In this document: piece by piece, positions 3,714-52,511 of the stretch
Numbering within the stretch: position 1 is the stretch's first letter
How the letters are laid out: every line of letters begins with the position of its first letter
Origin: Clostridiales bacterium
GTDB lineage: Bacteria > Bacillota > Clostridia > Peptostreptococcales > T1SED10-28
NCBI GenBank assembly: GCA_007120165.1
Contig: SKOH01000087.1
Coordinates: 1,167-65,166, forward strand
Reading direction: 5' to 3'
Length of the DNA stretch: 64,000 bases
Notes under the pieces: model-generated
The model's database searches: none
The model's input: only the letters and a program-made list of their open reading frames with translations
What the model was told of the DNA's origin: nothing
Translations under genes and position numbers: made by a program

Positions 3714-4144
3714 TATTTCACCTCTTGGGTCTGATATATTTTTTCCAGCAACTGGTAAACCTCCGGATAATTTTTCTTCAGATTAACCGGACGTTTTTTA
3801 TTTTTATCCAAAAATACATGTTCCGTAAAGCCCGTGGATAAAAGTTCTTCCTTATCCCTTAAAATCCGGTAATGAAACGTGATTCTGCTGCCCCGGAATT
3901 TTTCGATCCAAACTTCAACGGTTAAATCGTCGTCGTAGAGGGCGGAGCTGATATATTTGCAGTTCACTTCAATGACCGGAAGGAAGATGCCGAGCTTTTC
4001 CATCTCCCGATAGCTCATCCCCAGTTCTTTTAGAAAAGTGGTCCGTGCCACTTCAAACCAGGGAAAGTAATTGGAATGATAAATAACTCCCATTTGATCA
4101 GTTTCGCTGTAGCGTGGTCGGATACGGGTTGTATGAACCTTCAT
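3713..4144 (-). CDS. Acyl-CoA thioesterase (YbgC/4HBT hotdog family)
   Basis: RYSETDQMGVIYHSNYFPWFEVART motif. Confidence 0.88.
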   Translation of the reverse strand: MKVHTTRIRPRYSETDQMGVIYHSNYFPWFEVARTTFLKELGMSYREMEKLGIFLPVIEVNCKYISSALYDDDLTVEVWIEKFRGSRITFHYRILRDKEELLSTGFTEHVFLDKNKKRPVNLKKNYPEVYQLLEKIYQTQEVK

Positions 4145-4165
4145 GATCTTCCTCCTTGGTTGTAT

Positions 4166-5920
4166 TTAAAGCACTTTGCTTTTGCCGCTGTAAATCAAAC
4201 CGGTTTTGCCGTCCACGGTTATAATGTCTCCGTTTTCTAATTTGGTGGTAGCGTTATCCACTTCCACCACGGTGGTTTTATGCAGATTAAGACCTACGAT
4301 TGCTGCGTGGCTGGTAAGTCCCCCTTCTTCCACCACCACGGCACCGGCCCGTTCCATGGCTTCAATGTAGTCCCGGTTGGTTGCATAGGAAACGAGGATA
4401 TCCCCTTTTTCGACCTTCTCTAAATCCTCATTGCTGTTGACAACAATTGCCCGGCCTGTAATCGACTGTTTTCCGATTCCTTTACCGGAAAGTAAAATCT
4501 CACTGGCCACGTGCACCTTTATTAAGTTCGTCGTCCCGGAGACGCCGACGGGAACCCCGGCAGTAATGACCACCAGATCTCCTGCCTGAATATGATTTTT
4601 TCTCAATGCTTCCATCACGGAAAGGTTGATAATGTCATCGGTGCCTTCCAGCTCGTCCATTAACATACTGTAGACTCCCCAGCTGAGGCTTAACTGTCTT
4701 CGGACATGTTCCTTCGTGGTGGCTGCAATGATGCTTGAGCTCGGTCTGAATTTCGATACCATTCTGGCTGTATGGCCGCTGGATGTGGCGGTAATAATGG
4801 CGGCAGCTTCCAGATCCATGGCGGTGGTGCAGGTTGCGTAGCTGATGGCATCGGTTACGGAAGGAGCGTCCTCGGAGCCTCTTTCTTTCAGTTTTTTCCC
4901 ATAATCAATAGACTCTTCCGTCCGAACAGCTATCGTGGCCATGGTCTTCACTGCTTCCTCCGGATATTTCCCCGCTGCAGTCTCGCCGGATAACATAATG
5001 GCATCACTGCCGTCGAGGATTGCATTGGAAACGTCGGTTACCTCCGCCCGGGTGGGTCTGGGATTTCGGATCATCGAGTCCAGCATCTGTGTGGCAGTGA
5101 TTACCGGTTTACCTACGGCGTTGCATCTTGCGATCATATCCTTTTGGATTAACGCAATGTCTTCCGTCGGAACCTCCACACCCAGATCCCCTCGGGCGAC
5201 CATGATCCCATCGGAAACTTCGATAATGGCATCTAAATTGTCTACCCCTTCCTGGTTTTCGATTTTTGGAATGATTTGTATGGACTCTCCCCCGTTTTCT
5301 TCCAGGATGGCTTTGATTTCCAATACATCCTCCGCCTTTCGTACGAAGGAAGCGGCAATGAAGTCCACACCCATTCTGATACCGAATTTGATATCATCAA
5401 TATCTTTCTCGGTAAGGGGGGGTAAATTCGTTTTTACGCCGGGAAGGTTCACACCCTTATGGTCTTTGATCTCTCCGTTATTCTCCACGGTACACTGGAT
5501 ATCGGTTTCATTTAAAAAGCCTTCCACTTTTAACGAAACCAAACCGTCGTCGATCAGAATTTTATCGCCGATTTCCAGGTCATCTATAATACCTTTATAG
5601 GTAACCGAAGCCATGCTCTGATCTCCCAGGACGTCCCGGGTGGTAATGATGTAAGAGTCTCCCTCTTGAAGTTCTACCTTATCTACTTTAAATTTTCCCG
5701 TTCGGATTTCCGGACCCTTGGTATCCAGCATAATGGCAAGGGGAACTTCCAGATCCTCCCGAACTCTTTTGATTACTTCGATTCTTTGCTGGTGCTCCTG
5801 CTGATTCCCGTGGGAAAAGTTGAGTCTCGCCACATTCATTCCCTTCTGCACCAAATTCTTTAAAATGTCATAGGTTTCACTGGCGGGTCCTATGGTACAT
5901 ACTACTTTTGTTTTCTTCAT
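4166..5920 (-). CDS. pyk: Pyruvate kinase with C-terminal PEP-utiliser swivel domain
   Basis: KTKVVCTIGPAS, ARLNFSHG, DGIMVARGDLGVE; C-terminal GGLTSHAAIVG. Confidence 0.97.
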   Translation of the reverse strand: MKKTKVVCTIGPASETYDILKNLVQKGMNVARLNFSHGNQQEHQQRIEVIKRVREDLEVPLAIMLDTKGPEIRTGKFKVDKVELQEGDSYIITTRDVLGDQSMASVTYKGIIDDLEIGDKILIDDGLVSLKVEGFLNETDIQCTVENNGEIKDHKGVNLPGVKTNLPPLTEKDIDDIKFGIRMGVDFIAASFVRKAEDVLEIKAILEENGGESIQIIPKIENQEGVDNLDAIIEVSDGIMVARGDLGVEVPTEDIALIQKDMIARCNAVGKPVITATQMLDSMIRNPRPTRAEVTDVSNAILDGSDAIMLSGETAAGKYPEEAVKTMATIAVRTEESIDYGKKLKERGSEDAPSVTDAISYATCTTAMDLEAAAIITATSSGHTARMVSKFRPSSSIIAATTKEHVRRQLSLSWGVYSMLMDELEGTDDIINLSVMEALRKNHIQAGDLVVITAGVPVGVSGTTNLIKVHVASEILLSGKGIGKQSITGRAIVVNSNEDLEKVEKGDILVSYATNRDYIEAMERAGAVVVEEGGLTSHAAIVGLNLHKTTVVEVDNATTKLENGDIITVDGKTGLIYSGKSKVL

Positions 5921-43164: not shown

Positions 43165-44961
43165 TTAGCCTTTTTTAATGGCGTCAAAAGGACAGGCTTC
43201 CAAACAGGCATTGCATTTGATACATTGTTCGGTATCTATATGATACACGGTTTTGCCTTTTGTTCCGCTGATACAGTTCACCGGGCATTTTGCTGCACAG
43301 ATTCCGCATTTTTTACATTTTTCATCAATCACCATATAATTCAGTAAGGCTTTACAGACCCCGGCAGGACATCGTTTTTCATGCACATGGGCTTCATACT
43401 CATCCATAAAATAATGCAGTGTAGAGAGTACAGGATTCGGGGCGGTTTGTCCCAGACCGCAAAGAGACGCATTTTTAATGGTCTTCGCCAGGGTCTGAAG
43501 TTTTGTCAGATCCTCGACAGTACCTGTCCCTGCTGCAATTTTATCCAGCATTTCCAGCATTCTTTTTGTGCCGTCCCGACAGGGGGTGCATTTGCCGCAG
43601 GATTCTTCTACAGTAAAGTCTAAGAAGAACCGGGCGATATCCACCATACAGTTATCTTCATCCATTACAATCATTCCGCCGGATCCCATCATGGAGCCCA
43701 GTTCAATCAGATTATCATAATCAATGGGCGTATCAATATGGGCCGCAGGAATACATCCTCCCGACGGTCCACCGGTCTGCACCGCTTTAAATGCTTTTCC
43801 GTTGGGAATGCCTCCCCCTACATCATAAATCGCTTCCCGAAGGGTGGTTCCCATCGGAATCTCCAACAGTCCGGTATTGTTGATTTTTCCACCTAAGGCA
43901 AATACTTTGGTGCCTTTGGATTTTTCCGTTCCGATACTGGAAAACCACTCGGCTCCCCGGAGGATGATCTGGGGCACATTGGCATAGGTTTCAACATTAT
44001 TTAACAGCGTAGGTTTATTAAAAATACCCTTTACTGCAGGAAAAGGCGGTCTTGGTCTGGGCATTCCCCGTTTTCCTTCAATAGAATTTATCAGTGCAGT
44101 TTCCTCTCCACAAACGAATGCCCCTGCTCCAAGGCGTATTTCCATATCGAAGCTAAAGTCTGTATCAAAGATATTTTCTCCCAACAGGCCCATATCCTTT
44201 GCCTGATCAATGGCAATCTGCAGTCGATTTACCGCAATCGGATACTCTGCCCGAATATATACGTAACCTTTATTGGCTCCCACAGCATAAGCTGCGATGG
44301 CCATCGACTCAATTATTACATGAGGGTCCCCCTCCAGGACGGAACGGTCCATAAAGGCCCCGGGATCCCCTTCATCGGCGTTACAGGCCACATACTTCTG
44401 GTCGCCCTCGGCCTTTGCGGTAAAGTCCCATTTCAGACCCGTGGGAAAACCCCCGCCTCCTCGTCCACGTAGTCCGGAATCCTTTACAATTTGAATGACT
44501 TCTTCCGGAGTCATGTCCGTCAGTACCCGGCCTAAGGCTTCATATCCGTCGTAGGCAATATATTCTTCAATAACCTCAGGATTAATCACCCCACAGTTTC
44601 TAAGGGCCACCCGCTCCTGCTTTTTATAAAATCCAACATCATTAATGGACTGCATTTCTCCTTCTTGAATGGATTCTTTATACAGTAAGTCCGTAACAAT
44701 TCTTCCCTTTACCAAATGCTCCGAAACGATGGTATCCACATCTTCTACTTTCAGTTGACTGTAAAAGGCCCCTTCAGGATAAACGATTACGATGGGACCA
44801 GCCTCACACAGCCCGAAACATCCGGTCTTTACGACCTTCGCTTCATTCTTTAAATCATTTTTTTCGATTAGGTCAATAAAACGTTCTTCAATTTTCAAGG
44901 AATCGGAAGATACACAACCGGTTCCTCCACATACAAGTATATGGGATCGATATAATTCCAT
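43165..44961 (-). CDS. NuoF-like NADH/FMN-binding subunit (HydB/HylB-like) of the FDH complex
   Basis: N-terminal thioredoxin-like 2Fe-2S domain, SGLRGRGGGGFP, NADEGDPGAFMD, GGPSGGC, ESCGKCTPCR, C-terminal 2x[4Fe-4S]. Confidence 0.93.
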   Translation of the reverse strand: MELYRSHILVCGGTGCVSSDSLKIEERFIDLIEKNDLKNEAKVVKTGCFGLCEAGPIVIVYPEGAFYSQLKVEDVDTIVSEHLVKGRIVTDLLYKESIQEGEMQSINDVGFYKKQERVALRNCGVINPEVIEEYIAYDGYEALGRVLTDMTPEEVIQIVKDSGLRGRGGGGFPTGLKWDFTAKAEGDQKYVACNADEGDPGAFMDRSVLEGDPHVIIESMAIAAYAVGANKGYVYIRAEYPIAVNRLQIAIDQAKDMGLLGENIFDTDFSFDMEIRLGAGAFVCGEETALINSIEGKRGMPRPRPPFPAVKGIFNKPTLLNNVETYANVPQIILRGAEWFSSIGTEKSKGTKVFALGGKINNTGLLEIPMGTTLREAIYDVGGGIPNGKAFKAVQTGGPSGGCIPAAHIDTPIDYDNLIELGSMMGSGGMIVMDEDNCMVDIARFFLDFTVEESCGKCTPCRDGTKRMLEMLDKIAAGTGTVEDLTKLQTLAKTIKNASLCGLGQTAPNPVLSTLHYFMDEYEAHVHEKRCPAGVCKALLNYMVIDEKCKKCGICAAKCPVNCISGTKGKTVYHIDTEQCIKCNACLEACPFDAIKKG

Positions 44962-44991
44962 GTTCAAACCTCCTTGCGTTTAGTTTCTACT

Positions 44992-45360
44992 TTACTTTTC
45001 ATAGGCTCCTATGGTATATTCCTGGACCACTTTGCCGTTGACAATGTGCTCCGCAACCACTCTTTTGGCTTTTTCCCCGTCCATGTGGACATAGGTCACT
45101 TTTTCTTCTCCTGCTCGATATACTTCAAACATCGGTTCCAGTCGACAGGCTCCGATACAGCCGGTTTGGGTTACCGTGACATCCTGTAGAGTTCTTTTCT
45201 TTACTTCTTCTACCAGCGCCATCATCACCGGTCTTGCCCCGGCGGAAATTCCACAGGTTGCCATTCCTACCACAATTCGGGTCCCTTTGCCGCTTCTTCG
45301 CATATCCACCTGATCCAACGAGTCTTTTCGAAGTTTACGCAGTTCTTCTAAACTTTTCAT
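44992..45360 (-). CDS. Thioredoxin-like [2Fe-2S] ferredoxin subunit (HydD/HndB-like) of the FDH module
   Basis: IVVGMATCGISAGA, TGCIGACRLEP. Confidence 0.88.
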   Translation of the reverse strand: MKSLEELRKLRKDSLDQVDMRRSGKGTRIVVGMATCGISAGARPVMMALVEEVKKRTLQDVTVTQTGCIGACRLEPMFEVYRAGEEKVTYVHMDGEKAKRVVAEHIVNGKVVQEYTIGAYEK

Positions 45361-45403
45361 CAATAAACCTCCCTTATCCATATAGTTTTACCTTGGGATT
45401 TCA

Positions 45404-45892
45404 TTACCCTTGGTATTTCTTCATAATTCCCGGAATATCTTTAACGTCCAGCTTTCCATAAACGTCTTCATTAATGGTGATTACCGGTGCAAGGCCGCAG
45501 GCCCCGATACACCTTGTAGCCTCTAACGTAAACTTCCCATCCGGTGAGGTCTCCCCGGTTTTGGTATCAATAATTTCACTGATCTTGTCCAAAATGGGTT
45601 GTGCGTTTTTAACATAACATGCGGTTCCCATACAGACCCCCACTACGTATTCCCCCTTGGGTACCAGCGAGAATTGAGAGTAAAAAGTTACCACTCCGTA
45701 AATATCACTCATGGGCACCTTTAATTCATCGGATACGTACTTTTGTACTTCATAGGGCACGCAGCCGAAAATCTTTTGAGCCTGGGTTAAGACCGGCATC
45801 AGAGGCCCTTTAGTTCCCCTTACTTTTTCAATCTGCTGATCCAGCTGCTGAAAATTTTCTTCCGTTAATACTTTTTCCACTAACTCTTTCAT
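45404..45892 (-). CDS. NuoE-like [2Fe-2S] subunit (HydC/HylC-like) of the FDH module
   Basis: GVVTFYSQF, VCMGTACYVK, RCIGACGLAP. Confidence 0.92.
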   Translation of the reverse strand: MKELVEKVLTEENFQQLDQQIEKVRGTKGPLMPVLTQAQKIFGCVPYEVQKYVSDELKVPMSDIYGVVTFYSQFSLVPKGEYVVGVCMGTACYVKNAQPILDKISEIIDTKTGETSPDGKFTLEATRCIGACGLAPVITINEDVYGKLDVKDIPGIMKKYQG

Positions 45893-50221: not shown

Positions 50222-50467
50222 TTAATTCTTAGACAGGGCGCTTTTAACCGCTACTCCTTGCAGCTTCCCTAATTGTCCGGTCAATCCTCCGATTTCATCC
50301 GTGGTGCCGTCGATAATGGCGCTGATAATATTTAAGTTTTTTTCTTTATAGGGTACCCCCATCCGGCCAATAATGATCTCTGCATATTTACTCAGTATCC
50401 GATTGACCATCGGGATGCTTTCTTTATCTTCGATGATGATGGCCACCACCCCTACCCGTTTACCCAT
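50222..50467 (-). CDS. TM1266-family iron-only hydrogenase system putative regulator (ACT-like)
   Basis: RVGVVAIII...ILSKYAEIIIGRMGVPY...GTTDEIGGLTGQLGKL. ATG 50467 behind AGGAGG. Confidence 0.88.
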   Translation of the reverse strand: MGKRVGVVAIIIEDKESIPMVNRILSKYAEIIIGRMGVPYKEKNLNIISAIIDGTTDEIGGLTGQLGKLQGVAVKSALSKN

Positions 50468-50498
50468 GGCTGTTCCTCCTGTCCTGAAAATGAGCATC

Positions 50499-50525
50499 AA
50501 AAAAAACTCTCCAAAGGTTGGAAAG
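50499..50525 (-). terminator. Intrinsic terminator 31 bp upstream of the maturase operon start codon (attenuator candidate)
   Basis: mRNA reads CUUUCCAA-CCU-UUGGAGAG followed by U8. Confidence 0.75.
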
Positions 50526-50643
50526 GCCCCTTTAGCTCAGAAAATTCCTTGCCGGCAGTGCTTTTCAGATCCTTTCCGTGAATCTCATCCACGGAGCAGA
50601 TTTTGGTATGATGATTTTTTTCGATACCGTTTTTATCAATGAT

Positions 50644-50683
50644 GTTTATAGAAAGCATAGTTTTTACTACGCTTTCTATAAAC
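50644..50683 (-). other. 17-bp stem-loop just after the hydA stop (terminator or stabiliser)
   Basis: GTTTATAGAAAGCGTAG-TAAAAA-CTATGCTTTCTATAAAC on the minus strand; no clear U tract. Confidence 0.6.
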
Positions 50684-50699
50684 CGTATTTTTGCATTCC

Positions 50700-52511
50700 T
50701 TACCCTGATACCCCTACTTTTTCTTCCAGTAAACCGATAACCATTTCCTTTACTTCCGGCAAATCCGCTGCCGGGTATTTGACCCGGGCAGTATAATGGG
50801 TGTGAAGGAGTTCGTGCGCCCTATGGCTGTTGGGCTTTTCCAGAAATTCTCTGTATAGTTTTTTTACTAATGGATTTTCATGGGATTTACGGAATTCCTT
50901 TACGGTATCCTCCTGATACAGCGCCTTTGCCCGTTCCACTCGGATATCCAGATCCATTTTTTTACTTACCGGGACATGGGGCTGACCGCCACCGTTGACA
51001 CAGCCTCCACTGCAGCCCATCATTTCGATGAAGTGATACTCCTTTTCCCCGGATTCAATCATCTGAAGAAGTTTTTCTGCATTGGCGGTTCCGTGGGCGA
51101 CTCCCAGTTTAATGACAGCGCCTCCCAGGGTGATCTCCCCCTCTTTAATGCCGGAGATGCCTCGAATATTATGGTATTCAATTTTTTTCAGGTCCTCATG
51201 GTCCACTAAATCCTTCAGCGATCGTAAGGAGGCTTCCATTACGCCGCCGGTAGCTCCGAATATTGCTCCGGCCCCGGTATAATCTCCCAGCGCAGGATCA
51301 AACTCTGCATCTTCAAGCTTCATAAAGTCAATCCGGGCCTGTTTGATCATTTTTGCCAGCTCTCGGGTGGTTAGGACGGCGTCCACATCCTGAAGTCCGT
51401 TTACCTGGAGTTCAGGTCTTGCCGCCTCGGATTTTTTCGCCGTACAGGGCATGATGGAAACCATAAAGATCTTTTTAGGATCAATACTATGTTTTTTTGC
51501 ATAATAGGATTTTACAATGGCTCCCATCATCTGGTGGGGTGATTTACAGGTAGAAAGATTCTCCAGTAATTCCGGATGATTGTATTCACAGTATTTTACC
51601 CATCCCGGTGAACAGGAGGTAATCATCGGCAGTTTCCCGCCATTTTGAATTCGATCCAGCAGTTCATGCCCCTCTTCCATAATGGTAAGGTCCGCAGCGA
51701 AGTTGGTATCGAATACCTGATCAAATCCCAGTCTTTTAAGGGAAGCTACCATTTTCCCCGTGACCCGGGTGCCAATGGGCATTCCAAACGCTTCACCCAA
51801 AGCAGCTCTTACCGCCGGAGCGGTCTGTACTACCACATGCACCTCCGGATTCTCAATAACGTCCCAGACTCTGTCGATATCTTCCTTTTCCTTCAAGGCC
51901 CCTACCGGACATACCGACACACACTGTCCGCACTGGATACAGGGCATTTCATTCAAGCCCCTATTGAAGGCCGGTGTAACTTCAGTTTCAACGCCTCTTT
52001 TCGTAAAGTCAAGAATTCCGATTCCCTGCTCTACTTTACAAACATTCACACATCGTCCGCAGAGGATACATTTATTCGGATCCCTTACGATCGCTTCGGA
52101 TTTAGTATCCACGGGATGCACCGTATCTCTTTTATTAAAAGGGATTTCAGTTATATTTAACTCTTCGGATAATGTCTGCAGTTCACAACTTTTATTTCTA
52201 AAGCAGGTTAAGCATTCCCGGTCATGATTGGAAAGCAGCAGTTCCACCGTGGACTTTCTAACATTCCTCAGCTTCTTCGAATTGGTTTTTACAACCATCC
52301 CTTCATAGATCGGCTGCACACAGGAAGCCTGCAGAGACCTCGCTCCTTCCACTTCCACTAAACAGACTCGGCATGCGCCAACTTCATTAATATCTTTTAA
52401 AAAGCACAGGGTTGGAATATCAATTCCGGTGGCTTTGGCCGCTTCCAATATGGTATATTCCTTAGGTACCTCCACTTGAATATTATCTATGGTTAAGGTG
52501 ACTTTTTCCAT
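50700..52511 (-). CDS. hydA: [FeFe]-hydrogenase catalytic subunit, heteromultimeric (group A3-type)
   Basis: H-cluster motifs TSCSPGW, MPCTAKKSE, EMMGCSGGCVNGGGQP; N-terminal 2Fe-2S, His-ligated 4Fe-4S and 2x4Fe-4S domains. Confidence 0.96.
   Translation of the reverse strand: MEKVTLTIDNIQVEVPKEYTILEAAKATGIDIPTLCFLKDINEVGACRVCLVEVEGARSLQASCVQPIYEGMVVKTNSKKLRNVRKSTVELLLSNHDRECLTCFRNKSCELQTLSEELNITEIPFNKRDTVHPVDTKSEAIVRDPNKCILCGRCVNVCKVEQGIGILDFTKRGVETEVTPAFNRGLNEMPCIQCGQCVSVCPVGALKEKEDIDRVWDVIENPEVHVVVQTAPAVRAALGEAFGMPIGTRVTGKMVASLKRLGFDQVFDTNFAADLTIMEEGHELLDRIQNGGKLPMITSCSPGWVKYCEYNHPELLENLSTCKSPHQMMGAIVKSYYAKKHSIDPKKIFMVSIMPCTAKKSEAARPELQVNGLQDVDAVLTTRELAKMIKQARIDFMKLEDAEFDPALGDYTGAGAIFGATGGVMEASLRSLKDLVDHEDLKKIEYHNIRGISGIKEGEITLGGAVIKLGVAHGTANAEKLLQMIESGEKEYHFIEMMGCSGGCVNGGGQPHVPVSKKMDLDIRVERAKALYQEDTVKEFRKSHENPLVKKLYREFLEKPNSHRAHELLHTHYTARVKYPAADLPEVKEMVIGLLEEKVGVSG

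Follow-up and report, generated by a model that had tools for sequence, protein, structure and literature searches.

TRAP is an oligomeric, ligand-gated protein that acts on repeated RNA elements, either blocking an antiterminator or occluding a Shine-Dalgarno sequence, and its regulon joins a pathway with transporters. In the LicT/SacY family, a dimer of the CAT domain clamps a short hairpin, the ribonucleic antiterminator (RAT), with two internal loops placed in pseudo-two-fold symmetry. The RAT and the terminator compete (PMC5393181), and in the HutP system the regulated terminator lies between hutP and its target genes (PMC12591593). Here we consider a leader RNA encoded in a 64,000-nucleotide stretch of Clostridiales bacterium DNA (contig SKOH01000087.1; the whole stretch is called the window below), in front of a gene of the TM1266 family and the [FeFe]-hydrogenase maturation genes hydG, hydE and hydF. 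Next to nothing is known, to our knowledge, of how the maturases that build the H-cluster of these enzymes are regulated. TM1266 itself has reportedly been called a 'putative regulator' since its structure of 2006, and is said to have no assigned mechanism and no DNA-binding domain.

An earlier note on this DNA had seen in the region a leader that controls the maturase operon, similar to an attenuator or a riboswitch but of no assigned family, a view that our analysis bears out: it is conserved, its pairing covaries, a terminator follows and Rfam holds no match. Pfam also returned the downstream genes that the note had named. The leader is a real, widely conserved, covarying folded RNA ending in a terminator. 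Going further, we propose that it acts as a conserved cis-acting transcription attenuator for the maturation genes, driven by the TM1266 protein, a reading of the sequences to which we give about an even chance. The mechanism would be of a known kind, terminator/antiterminator attenuation; what is new is the RNA architecture and the possible protein partner.

A conserved leader built from repeated modules

The leader was compared across more than 150 related loci, and the upstream regions of 80 loci encoding TM1266 relatives, taken from species-representative genomes, were inspected. Coordinates are those of the window, in which the leader and the genes downstream are read on the minus strand. 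The upstream regions of the TM1266 loci share a repeated unit, CU(G/A)N...(A/G)AGG, which we describe as a module of 5'-CU(G/A)N, a helix and (A/G)AGG-3'. In each module CU faces GG, giving a C-G pair and a conserved U.G wobble, and RN and RA are opposed as a 2x2 purine loop. The window holds three modules in total: one sits on a hairpin (U1), and two stand back to back on a helix of 4 base pairs (bp), which together form the core. The formula of the core, 5'-CURN-P2-RAGG-loop(4-8)-CURN-P2'-RAGG-3', with a P2 of 4 bp, is that of a two-fold pseudo-symmetric hairpin. When the units are collected with a regular expression that carries no pairing requirement, the inner segments of 4 nucleotides (nt) in successive units prove reverse-complementary yet variable between lineages (TTGC/GCAA, GCTT/GAGC, GCCT/GGGC, TGAT/ATTA, GAAT/ATTC, TTGT/ACAA and CGCC/GGCG), and therefore both units form one hairpin.

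Indeed, an alignment of 37 core sequences is paired in 96.6% of its cells and covaries at all four P2 pairs, and the same four pairs covary in alignment A5, comprising 55 distinct sequences from a covariance-model search (95.4% paired). Double changes fill 95 cells of A5, against 31 ± 5 in shuffles and at most 23 when the partners are slid. The seed set for the core needed at least three P2 pairs, a slight bias, and the unfiltered pattern list is a nearly identical set. Also in A5, 51 of 55 sequences retain the U.G wobble of P1 and 49 of 55 the G.U wobble of P3; such conservation suggests that the sense strand is recognised by its sequence. With the G.U pairs that are frequent in P2, the wobbles place the structure on the sense RNA strand and so exclude a DNA operator. 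Read as DNA, the halves of the core do resemble a direct repeat, CTRA-N4-AAGG spaced about 17 bp apart, which a transcription factor could bind downstream of the promoter. We reject this highly improbable reading: the variable 4-nt segments are reverse-complementary and not identical (TTGC/GCAA, GCTT/GAGC, TGAT/ATTA and GAAT/ATTC), the many G.U pairs would be A-C mismatches on the other strand, and the motif reads in the same direction as the downstream gene in 64 of 64 matches.

Within the window, a covariance model built from the relatives (R1) has a single match, at 50560-50527 on the minus strand (34.2 bits, E 7e-6), and the pattern CTRN5RAGG-N6-CTRN5RAGG occurs once where 0.02 occurrences are expected. 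Taken alone, the window leader stands weakly above chance, with a folding z-score of -1.89 and 10 of 200 shuffles folding as well; the single-sequence signal is thus marginal, and the strength of the case comes from the comparison with relatives. This comparison also revises the middle of the leader. The earlier note had suggested pairing of GAAAA (50566-50562) with UUUUC (50544-50540) around UGCCGGCA, and these bases do pair in the minimum-free-energy fold of the single sequence; the pairing is not conserved, and we rejected it in favour of the conserved fold, CUGC-CGGC-AAGG, a loop and CUGA-GCUA-AAGG.

Upstream of the core, the hairpin CCGUGGAU-GAG-AUUCACGG noticed earlier is present at 50594-50576, and a 22-sequence alignment (A3) makes it a real covarying element: 95% of cells are paired and seven pairs show changes on both sides, which none of 500 shuffles reach. 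Around it, CUGC (50599-50596) faces AAGG (50574-50571) through the pairs C50599-G50571 and U50598-G50572 and a GC/AA 2x2 loop, and RNAfold closes this U1 module on the window sequence unaided, with the C-G pair, the U.G wobble and the GC/AA loop in place. The pair U50595-A50575 is C-G in relatives. UCUGA, a 9-bp hairpin and RAGGA precede the core in the group of Alkaliphilus, Geosporobacter, Marinisporobacter and Clostridium aceticum as well as in the window; C. aceticum also carries the closest named relative of the window TM1266 (78% identity), and U1, core and terminator all recur in its leader. Another hairpin takes the place of U1 in Clostridium sensu stricto, Caloramator and Desulfosporosinus (loci L133, L138, L153 and L116): it reads CUGA...UYGGA-loop-UCUGA...UUGGA, lies about 40-80 nt upstream of the core, and has G.U and A-U pairs where the modules have purine loops.

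The number of modules varies from two to four per leader (as in L021, the window and L049). Sedimentibacter has the core only, L049 has two cores, and in L028, L056 and L061 GC-rich modules sit on hairpins of their own. The model misses, or gives low scores to, divergent cores in L068 (2264-2294), L069 (2210-2239) and L065 (upstream of 2501), the last with an apical loop enlarged by about 30 inserted nt; the Limnochordales core has a P2 of only 2 bp, CUGA-CG-AAGG...CCGA-CG-AAGG.

Could this be a known RNA? A kink-turn has a 3-nt bulge followed by tandem sheared G.A/A.G pairs, set between a canonical and a non-canonical stem. We rejected a kink-turn of the L7Ae/YbxF type for the modules, as their RN/RA loops are symmetric 2x2 loops and none of the 55 sequences has a 3-nt bulge. 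Searched with cmscan, Rfam 15 gives no relevant match at E<=10 in 50300-50800 and nothing consistent at E<=1 in 11 homologous loci; no family reaches its gathering score on the leader when the window is scanned from end to end, nor in 18 homologous loci. In agreement with the earlier note, the covariance models find no T-box, SAM-I, Moco, TPP, cobalamin or c-di-GMP family in the leader at E<=10. The likeness to the SMK box that the note had mentioned did not hold up, since no S-adenosylmethionine (SAM) family appears even at that threshold. A divergent SAM-III (SMK box) or other known riboswitch, which only the loose likeness of GAAAGGAU...AAAGGGG recommends, accordingly has next to no probability in our eyes. 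The same near-negligible probability covers a leader peptide from the 53-codon, ATG-initiated open reading frame (ORF) at 50658-50497 (minus strand), which does span the whole leader; we rejected it, as transcription probably starts downstream of the first codon and the frame is interrupted in relatives, whose open stretches run to 17-42 codons. Full-text literature searches returned no description of the motif, though supplementary tables and subscription journals could still hold one, and the word 'hydrogenase' is absent from the main text of those structured-RNA discovery papers of the Breaker laboratory that the searches returned.

Terminator, competing pairings and the sign of the proposed switch

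The terminator CUUUCCAA-CCU-UUGGAGAG-U8 is where the earlier note had put it, by sequence and by terminator scan; its 8-bp stem, 3-nt loop and U8 stand upstream of the regulated ORF, as in an intrinsic terminator. A hairpin with a T-run lies within 170 nt past 62 of 64 homologous cores, compared with 16% (50 of 320) of windows drawn at random from these loci, and in C. aceticum the same terminator follows 3 nt past the core. An exception to this rule, L044, ends its core in AAGGGGG, which is the Shine-Dalgarno sequence of hydG, 9 nt before the ATG.

The 5' arm of the window terminator lies inside CCUUUCC (50526-50520), which is exactly complementary to GGAAAGG (50577-50571) of U1, as had been noted before. 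This duplex is worth -11.7 kcal/mol, against -9.2 kcal/mol for a shuffled terminator arm, and among 111 distinct leaders the best partner of the terminator 5' arm averages -12.0 against -9.0 kcal/mol for shuffled arms. That partner is mostly the 3' RAGG of the core with a few following bases, or the 3' end of U1; the clearest case is Sedimentibacter, in which the 3' arm of the terminator duplicates GCAAGGAA of the core. For the window, the terminated fold reaches -33.2 kcal/mol, the fold forced through GGAAAGG x CCUUUCC -23.7 kcal/mol and that through UAAAGG x CCUUUG -28.8 kcal/mol. The antiterminator proposed in the earlier note, GGAAAGG x CCUUUCC, is therefore sound as a complementarity and much weaker as a fold, and relatives more often use the 3' end of the core. 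Its anti-antiterminator, too, survives in part: U1 is involved, through closure of the whole module (CUGC against AAAGG), whereas the hairpin alone overlaps GGAAAGG by just 2 nt. Two to four modules per leader overlap the antiterminator strand, so that the repeated, symmetric elements of protein-dependent attenuation are present.

These pairings suggest that free modules would permit an antiterminator, and locked modules termination. In the mechanism that we envisage, the nascent RNA would begin with the recognition modules, followed by the intrinsic terminator, and the purine-rich 3' strands of the modules could alternatively pair with the pyrimidine-rich 5' arm of the terminator to make the antiterminator. 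An effector that locks the modules would let the terminator form and shorten the TM1266-hydG-hydE-hydF transcript, i.e. an OFF switch. This effector would most likely be an oligomer of the TM1266-family protein encoded beside the motif, its RNA binding gated in turn by a small ligand: a system like those of TRAP, PyrR or HutP, in which TM1266 would regulate itself negatively in operons that begin with its gene.

The modules probably form the 5' end of the transcript, judging from the spacing of a promoter-like site. In the window, 10 nt separate the end of its -10 box from UCUGC, and the relatives L159, L136 and L143 show the same spacing, with a -10 box, 10 nt and UCUGA. Among the checks named in the earlier note were conservation and covariation upstream of TM1266 and hydG in relatives, and a promoter downstream of the terminator; the former were found, and a consensus scan returned no sigma-70-like promoter between the terminator and the start codon.

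Does such a leader need an effector at all? In the window, U1 plus the terminator is the thermodynamic optimum, and in many loci hydA lies directly upstream of the motif, where it would help to damp read-through by a constant amount. Both observations would fit a leader that serves as a constitutive partial terminator, as a site of processing or as a stability element, and that sets the ratio of hydA to the maturases with another factor or with none. We nonetheless hold this to be unlikely, given that the leader has a promoter-like site of its own at a conserved spacing to U1, that wobbles and purine loops repeated two to four times exceed the needs of a stability hairpin, that the motif also precedes stand-alone importer operons and TM1266 operons, and that in L044 it overlaps a Shine-Dalgarno sequence.

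Regulon and the candidate effector

Genome and metagenome scans were made by RNA sequence pattern only, ignoring gene content, and sample only lineages with a matching P2. Among 43 good genome matches of the TTGC/GCAA type, TM1266 comes next in 36, as a rule with hydG, hydE and hydF behind it; among 42 of the Sedimentibacter type it is the next gene in 37, the other five being cut by the end of the locus. The metagenome scan added 24 further motif-TM1266 cases and, seen from the side of the protein, a core lies just upstream in 60 of the 80 TM1266 loci. Elsewhere the first gene past the motif is hydG (L105, L081) or hydE, followed by hydF (L091, L106), and in L254 and L336 hydE-hydF is in turn followed by an ABC importer. 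The Sedimentibacter operon runs motif, TM1266 and an NMT1/SsuA-like ABC importer, with no hydGEF in the locus; in L128 (Clostridiaceae 35-E11) a second copy of the motif precedes the ABC importer alone. An ECF S component follows the motif in L142 and L288, and follows TM1266 in L132 and L144. Peptoclostridium litorale has the row hydF-permease-ATPase-TM1266-binding protein, and Clostridium pascui has separate copies of the motif before TM1266 and before hydG-hydF. From this survey of first genes, the regulon comprises TM1266, hydG, hydE, hydF and two families of importers.

The first family, NMT1/SsuA-like (NitT/TauT family), was found in L128 (1854-1, minus strand), L192, L207 (416-3200), L254 and L015 (985-3767). 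It stands behind its own copy of the motif (L128), with TM1266 in an operon (Sedimentibacter) or among hydE and hydF (L254, P. litorale). Its binding protein has as best PDB match 3HN0, an uncharacterised 'nitrate transport protein', and shows only sub-threshold SsuA/TauA similarity in NCBIfam. The second is a membrane protein of 158-175 amino acids (aa), in L142 (296-817), L132, L144, L288 and L065 (2771-3244); those of L142 and L132 match ECF transporter S components (PF12822) without an NCBIfam family name, and that of L065 is similar by tblastn only (34% identity), with no Pfam match. The shared regulon suggests that the imported substrate is relevant to hydrogenase maturation. Two neighbouring observations stand apart: L128 also carries a glmS ribozyme at 4018-4186 (minus strand; 121.7 bits), unrelated to the leader, and in a Thermoanaerobacter-like locus (L066, 2501-5084) TM1266 lies between divIVA and a LivJ/LivH-type (Peripla_BP_6) amino-acid ABC importer, with no hyd genes or motif nearby and a terminator of its own behind it.

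The window protein is a TM1266 family member by both profile and fold. PF21699 covers residues 4-76 with 106.6 bits (cutoff 27), TIGR03959 scores 110.6 bits (cutoff 60.8), and PDB entry 2NZC is matched at E 7e-13. An AlphaFold2 model (pLDDT 95) has 2NZC as its closest fold (Foldseek TM-scores of 0.88-0.90), followed by NikR C-domains (0.74-0.88) and ACT domains. TM1266 thus consists of a NikR-C/ACT-type sensor fold only, without a DNA-binding or other nucleic-acid-binding module, and the fold search returned NikR-C, ACT, PII-like and generic ferredoxin-like structures, with no RNA-binding relative among them. DGTTDEIG is invariant in 79 of 79 distinct TM1266 sequences (loci L001-L080 and P0001-P0120) and GRMGxPY nearly so. 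The window protein contains no His and no Cys, which excludes a NikR-type nickel site; by its appearance, the acidic loop may accommodate a cation or a small ligand.

Why, then, favour this protein as effector? TM1266 is the gene almost always present beside the motif, which makes it, on this linkage, the likeliest candidate for an RNA-binding partner; binding by TM1266, one of the signals that the earlier note had proposed, is the leading candidate. Even where the motif does not control it, TM1266 remains a neighbour, lying divergently in L025 (in which the motif controls hydE) and L044 (in which it controls hydG) and upstream of the motif in L055, L029 and L071, and this favours TM1266 as the binder. 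A small, symmetric RNA with a variable number of modules is, moreover, usual for the sites of oligomeric proteins, and therefore favours the TM1266 protein too.

Alternatively, the CUGA/RAGG loops might bind a small molecule or an ion directly, one per module, the stabilised modules leading to termination. In that case TM1266 would not be the regulator: its gene would be the chief target of control, and its product a carrier or a ligand-binding protein. We regard such a direct riboswitch, the main rival of the TM1266 model, as possible, if somewhat doubtful. The leader does offer the conserved, covariation-supported structure of an aptamer together with a putative expression platform, its regulon mixes a pathway (hydG, hydE, hydF) with NitT/TauT-type ABC and ECF S importers, the motif occurs in operons without TM1266 and TM1266 without the motif, and tandem aptamers of small hairpins and internal loops are known, e.g. 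NAD+-I and guanidine-II. On the other hand, a pocket of only some 14 conserved nucleotides, set in a pair of identical 2x2 loops and lacking any junction or pseudoknot, would be very small; leaders differ by added, halved or duplicated modules; TM1266 stands beside the motif even where the motif does not regulate it (L025, L044, L055); and a shared OFF logic requires a ligand that is an end product for importers and maturases alike.

Several points nevertheless weigh against attenuation driven by TM1266. A regulon of importer and biosynthetic genes is equally typical of riboswitches. A Tepidanaerobacter-like operon runs motif-hydE-hydF-ABC importer with no TM1266 within 15 kb, and L106 is similar, while no core was found within 2.5 kb of the TM1266 genes of Thermotogae and Thermoanaerobacter. 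These motif-less TM1266 proteins keep every invariant residue, DGTTDEIG included, and no residues were found that separate the TM1266 of motif-bearing loci from that of motif-less ones. We know of no ACT or NikR-C domain that binds RNA. The terminated fold of the window is 4.4-9.5 kcal/mol more stable than either antiterminator, so that read-through would need a kinetic decision; the OFF sign of the switch is itself inferred from the pairing; and in metatranscriptome contigs from the same alkali-sediment sample hydA, hydE and hydF are covered and the leader is not, while a look for RNA sequencing runs of Sedimentibacter L021 returned none.

It is tempting to go one step further with the TM1266 protein. 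Perhaps it founds a new class of ligand-gated, RNA-binding attenuation proteins of the NikR-C/ACT fold, its effector being a precursor or intermediate of the [2Fe] subcluster of the H-cluster, or of the Tyr- or Cys-derived ligands of that subcluster, made by HydG, HydE and HydF and imported via the co-regulated ABC and ECF transporters. We consider this specific version a long shot; if true, bacteria would run the homeostasis, and possibly the salvage, of H-cluster precursors through a leader RNA.

The locus and its place among described systems

The features of the locus are collected in Table 1. A gap of 232 nt, in which the leader lies, separates the end of hydA from the TM1266-family gene.

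Table 1. Features of the leader and flanking genes in the window
Feature	Position	Strand	Details and source
hydB-like gene	54394-52604	-	part of a bifurcating-type [FeFe] hydrogenase pair; Pfam/NCBIfam
hydA	52511-50700	-	hydrogenase pair ends at 50700; Pfam/NCBIfam
Promoter-like site	50639-50634, 50616-50611	-	TTGATA, 17-nt spacer, AATCAT; sigma-70 consensus scan
U1 module	50599-50571	-	encloses U50595-A50575 and hairpin CCGUGGAU-GAG-AUUCACGG (50594-50576)
Core	50558-50529	-	two modules; two-fold pseudo-symmetric hairpin
Core 5' half	50558-50547	-	CUGC 50558-50555, P2 CGGC 50554-50551, AAGG 50550-50547
Core loop	50546-50541	-	AAUUUU
Core 3' half	50540-50529	-	CUGA 50540-50537, P2 GCUA 50536-50533, AAGG 50532-50529
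Intrinsic terminator	50525-50499	-	CUUUCCAA 50525-50518, CCU, UUGGAGAG 50514-50507, U8 50506-50499; terminator scan
Ribosome-binding site and start codon of TM1266-like gene	50480-50475, 50467-50465	-	AGGAGG, ATG; sequence
TM1266-family gene	50467-50222	-	81 aa; Pfam PF21699
hydG	50179-48809	-	Pfam
hydE	48777-47467	-	Pfam; N-terminal Se/S-carrier-like domain
hydF	47466-46213	-	Pfam

Three further features were seen nearby. Residues 7-75 of HydE form a PF11823 Se/S-carrier-like domain fused to the radical-SAM core. A perfect 17-bp hairpin, UUUAUAGAAAGCGUAGU-AAAA-ACUAUGCUUUCUAUAAA, lies at 50645-50683 (minus strand), 17 nt past the hydA stop and without a U-tract, and may be a 3'-end stabiliser or weak terminator for hydA. 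A second bifurcating hydrogenase cluster may begin directly past hydF (43165-45892, minus strand), with a NuoE-like gene, a second short thioredoxin-like [2Fe-2S] gene and a second NuoF-like gene.

Whichever effector acts on it, the leader offers a concrete target, namely a symmetric RNA of 30 nt and a protein of 81 aa. Should TM1266 bind the RNA, a sensor fold that is very common would acquire this function, and many Clostridia would share a newly defined system of attenuation. If a metabolite binds the RNA instead, we would be looking at a new class of orphan riboswitch, its ligand an indicator of H-cluster assembly. Either way, hydG, hydE and hydF are linked in one regulon to two uncharacterised importer families, and the link to an imported substrate would be useful for engineering H2 production.

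How does the system compare with those already described? Among riboswitches, it recalls NAD+-I (the nadA motif) and guanidine-II (mini-ykkC) in its repeated, near-identical small units, which would stand, as theirs do, upstream of one expression platform, and differs from them in its conserved nucleotides, with no covariance-model match to the leader. With the RAT of LicT/SacY it shares a short hairpin, internal loops of pseudo-two-fold symmetry and overlap with the terminator; however, RAT binding favours the antiterminator (ON), whereas the hyd module would compete with it (OFF, as inferred from pairing), the consensus is another one, and the hyd system has no PRD or CAT domain. Like PyrR, the window has a small putative regulator gene as first cistron with a terminator, the proposed point of regulation, in front, and like HutP, some loci (L055, L029, L071) have the terminator between the putative regulator and the target genes; HutP, however, is an antiterminator protein that binds NAG triplets and PyrR binds a specific stem-loop, and neither shares sequence, RNA motif or fold with the hyd leader and TM1266.

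TRAP, in the Bacillus subtilis trp operon and trpP/ycbK, offers the likeness of repeated leader elements, of control (for the hyd leader, proposed) at a terminator or Shine-Dalgarno sequence, and of a regulon that holds a pathway and transporters. It binds 9-11 single-stranded (G/U)AG triplets, whereas the hyd leader has structured helix-loop modules; and its fold is unrelated to that of TM1266. As a protein, TM1266 resembles the NikR-C and ACT sensors, with a beta-alpha-beta-beta-alpha-beta fold and a weak match to the NikR hidden Markov model. It differs from NikR in lacking the ribbon-helix-helix DNA-binding domain and, in the window protein, the His and Cys nickel ligands, and it carries invariant motifs of its own, GRMGxPY and DGTTDEIG.

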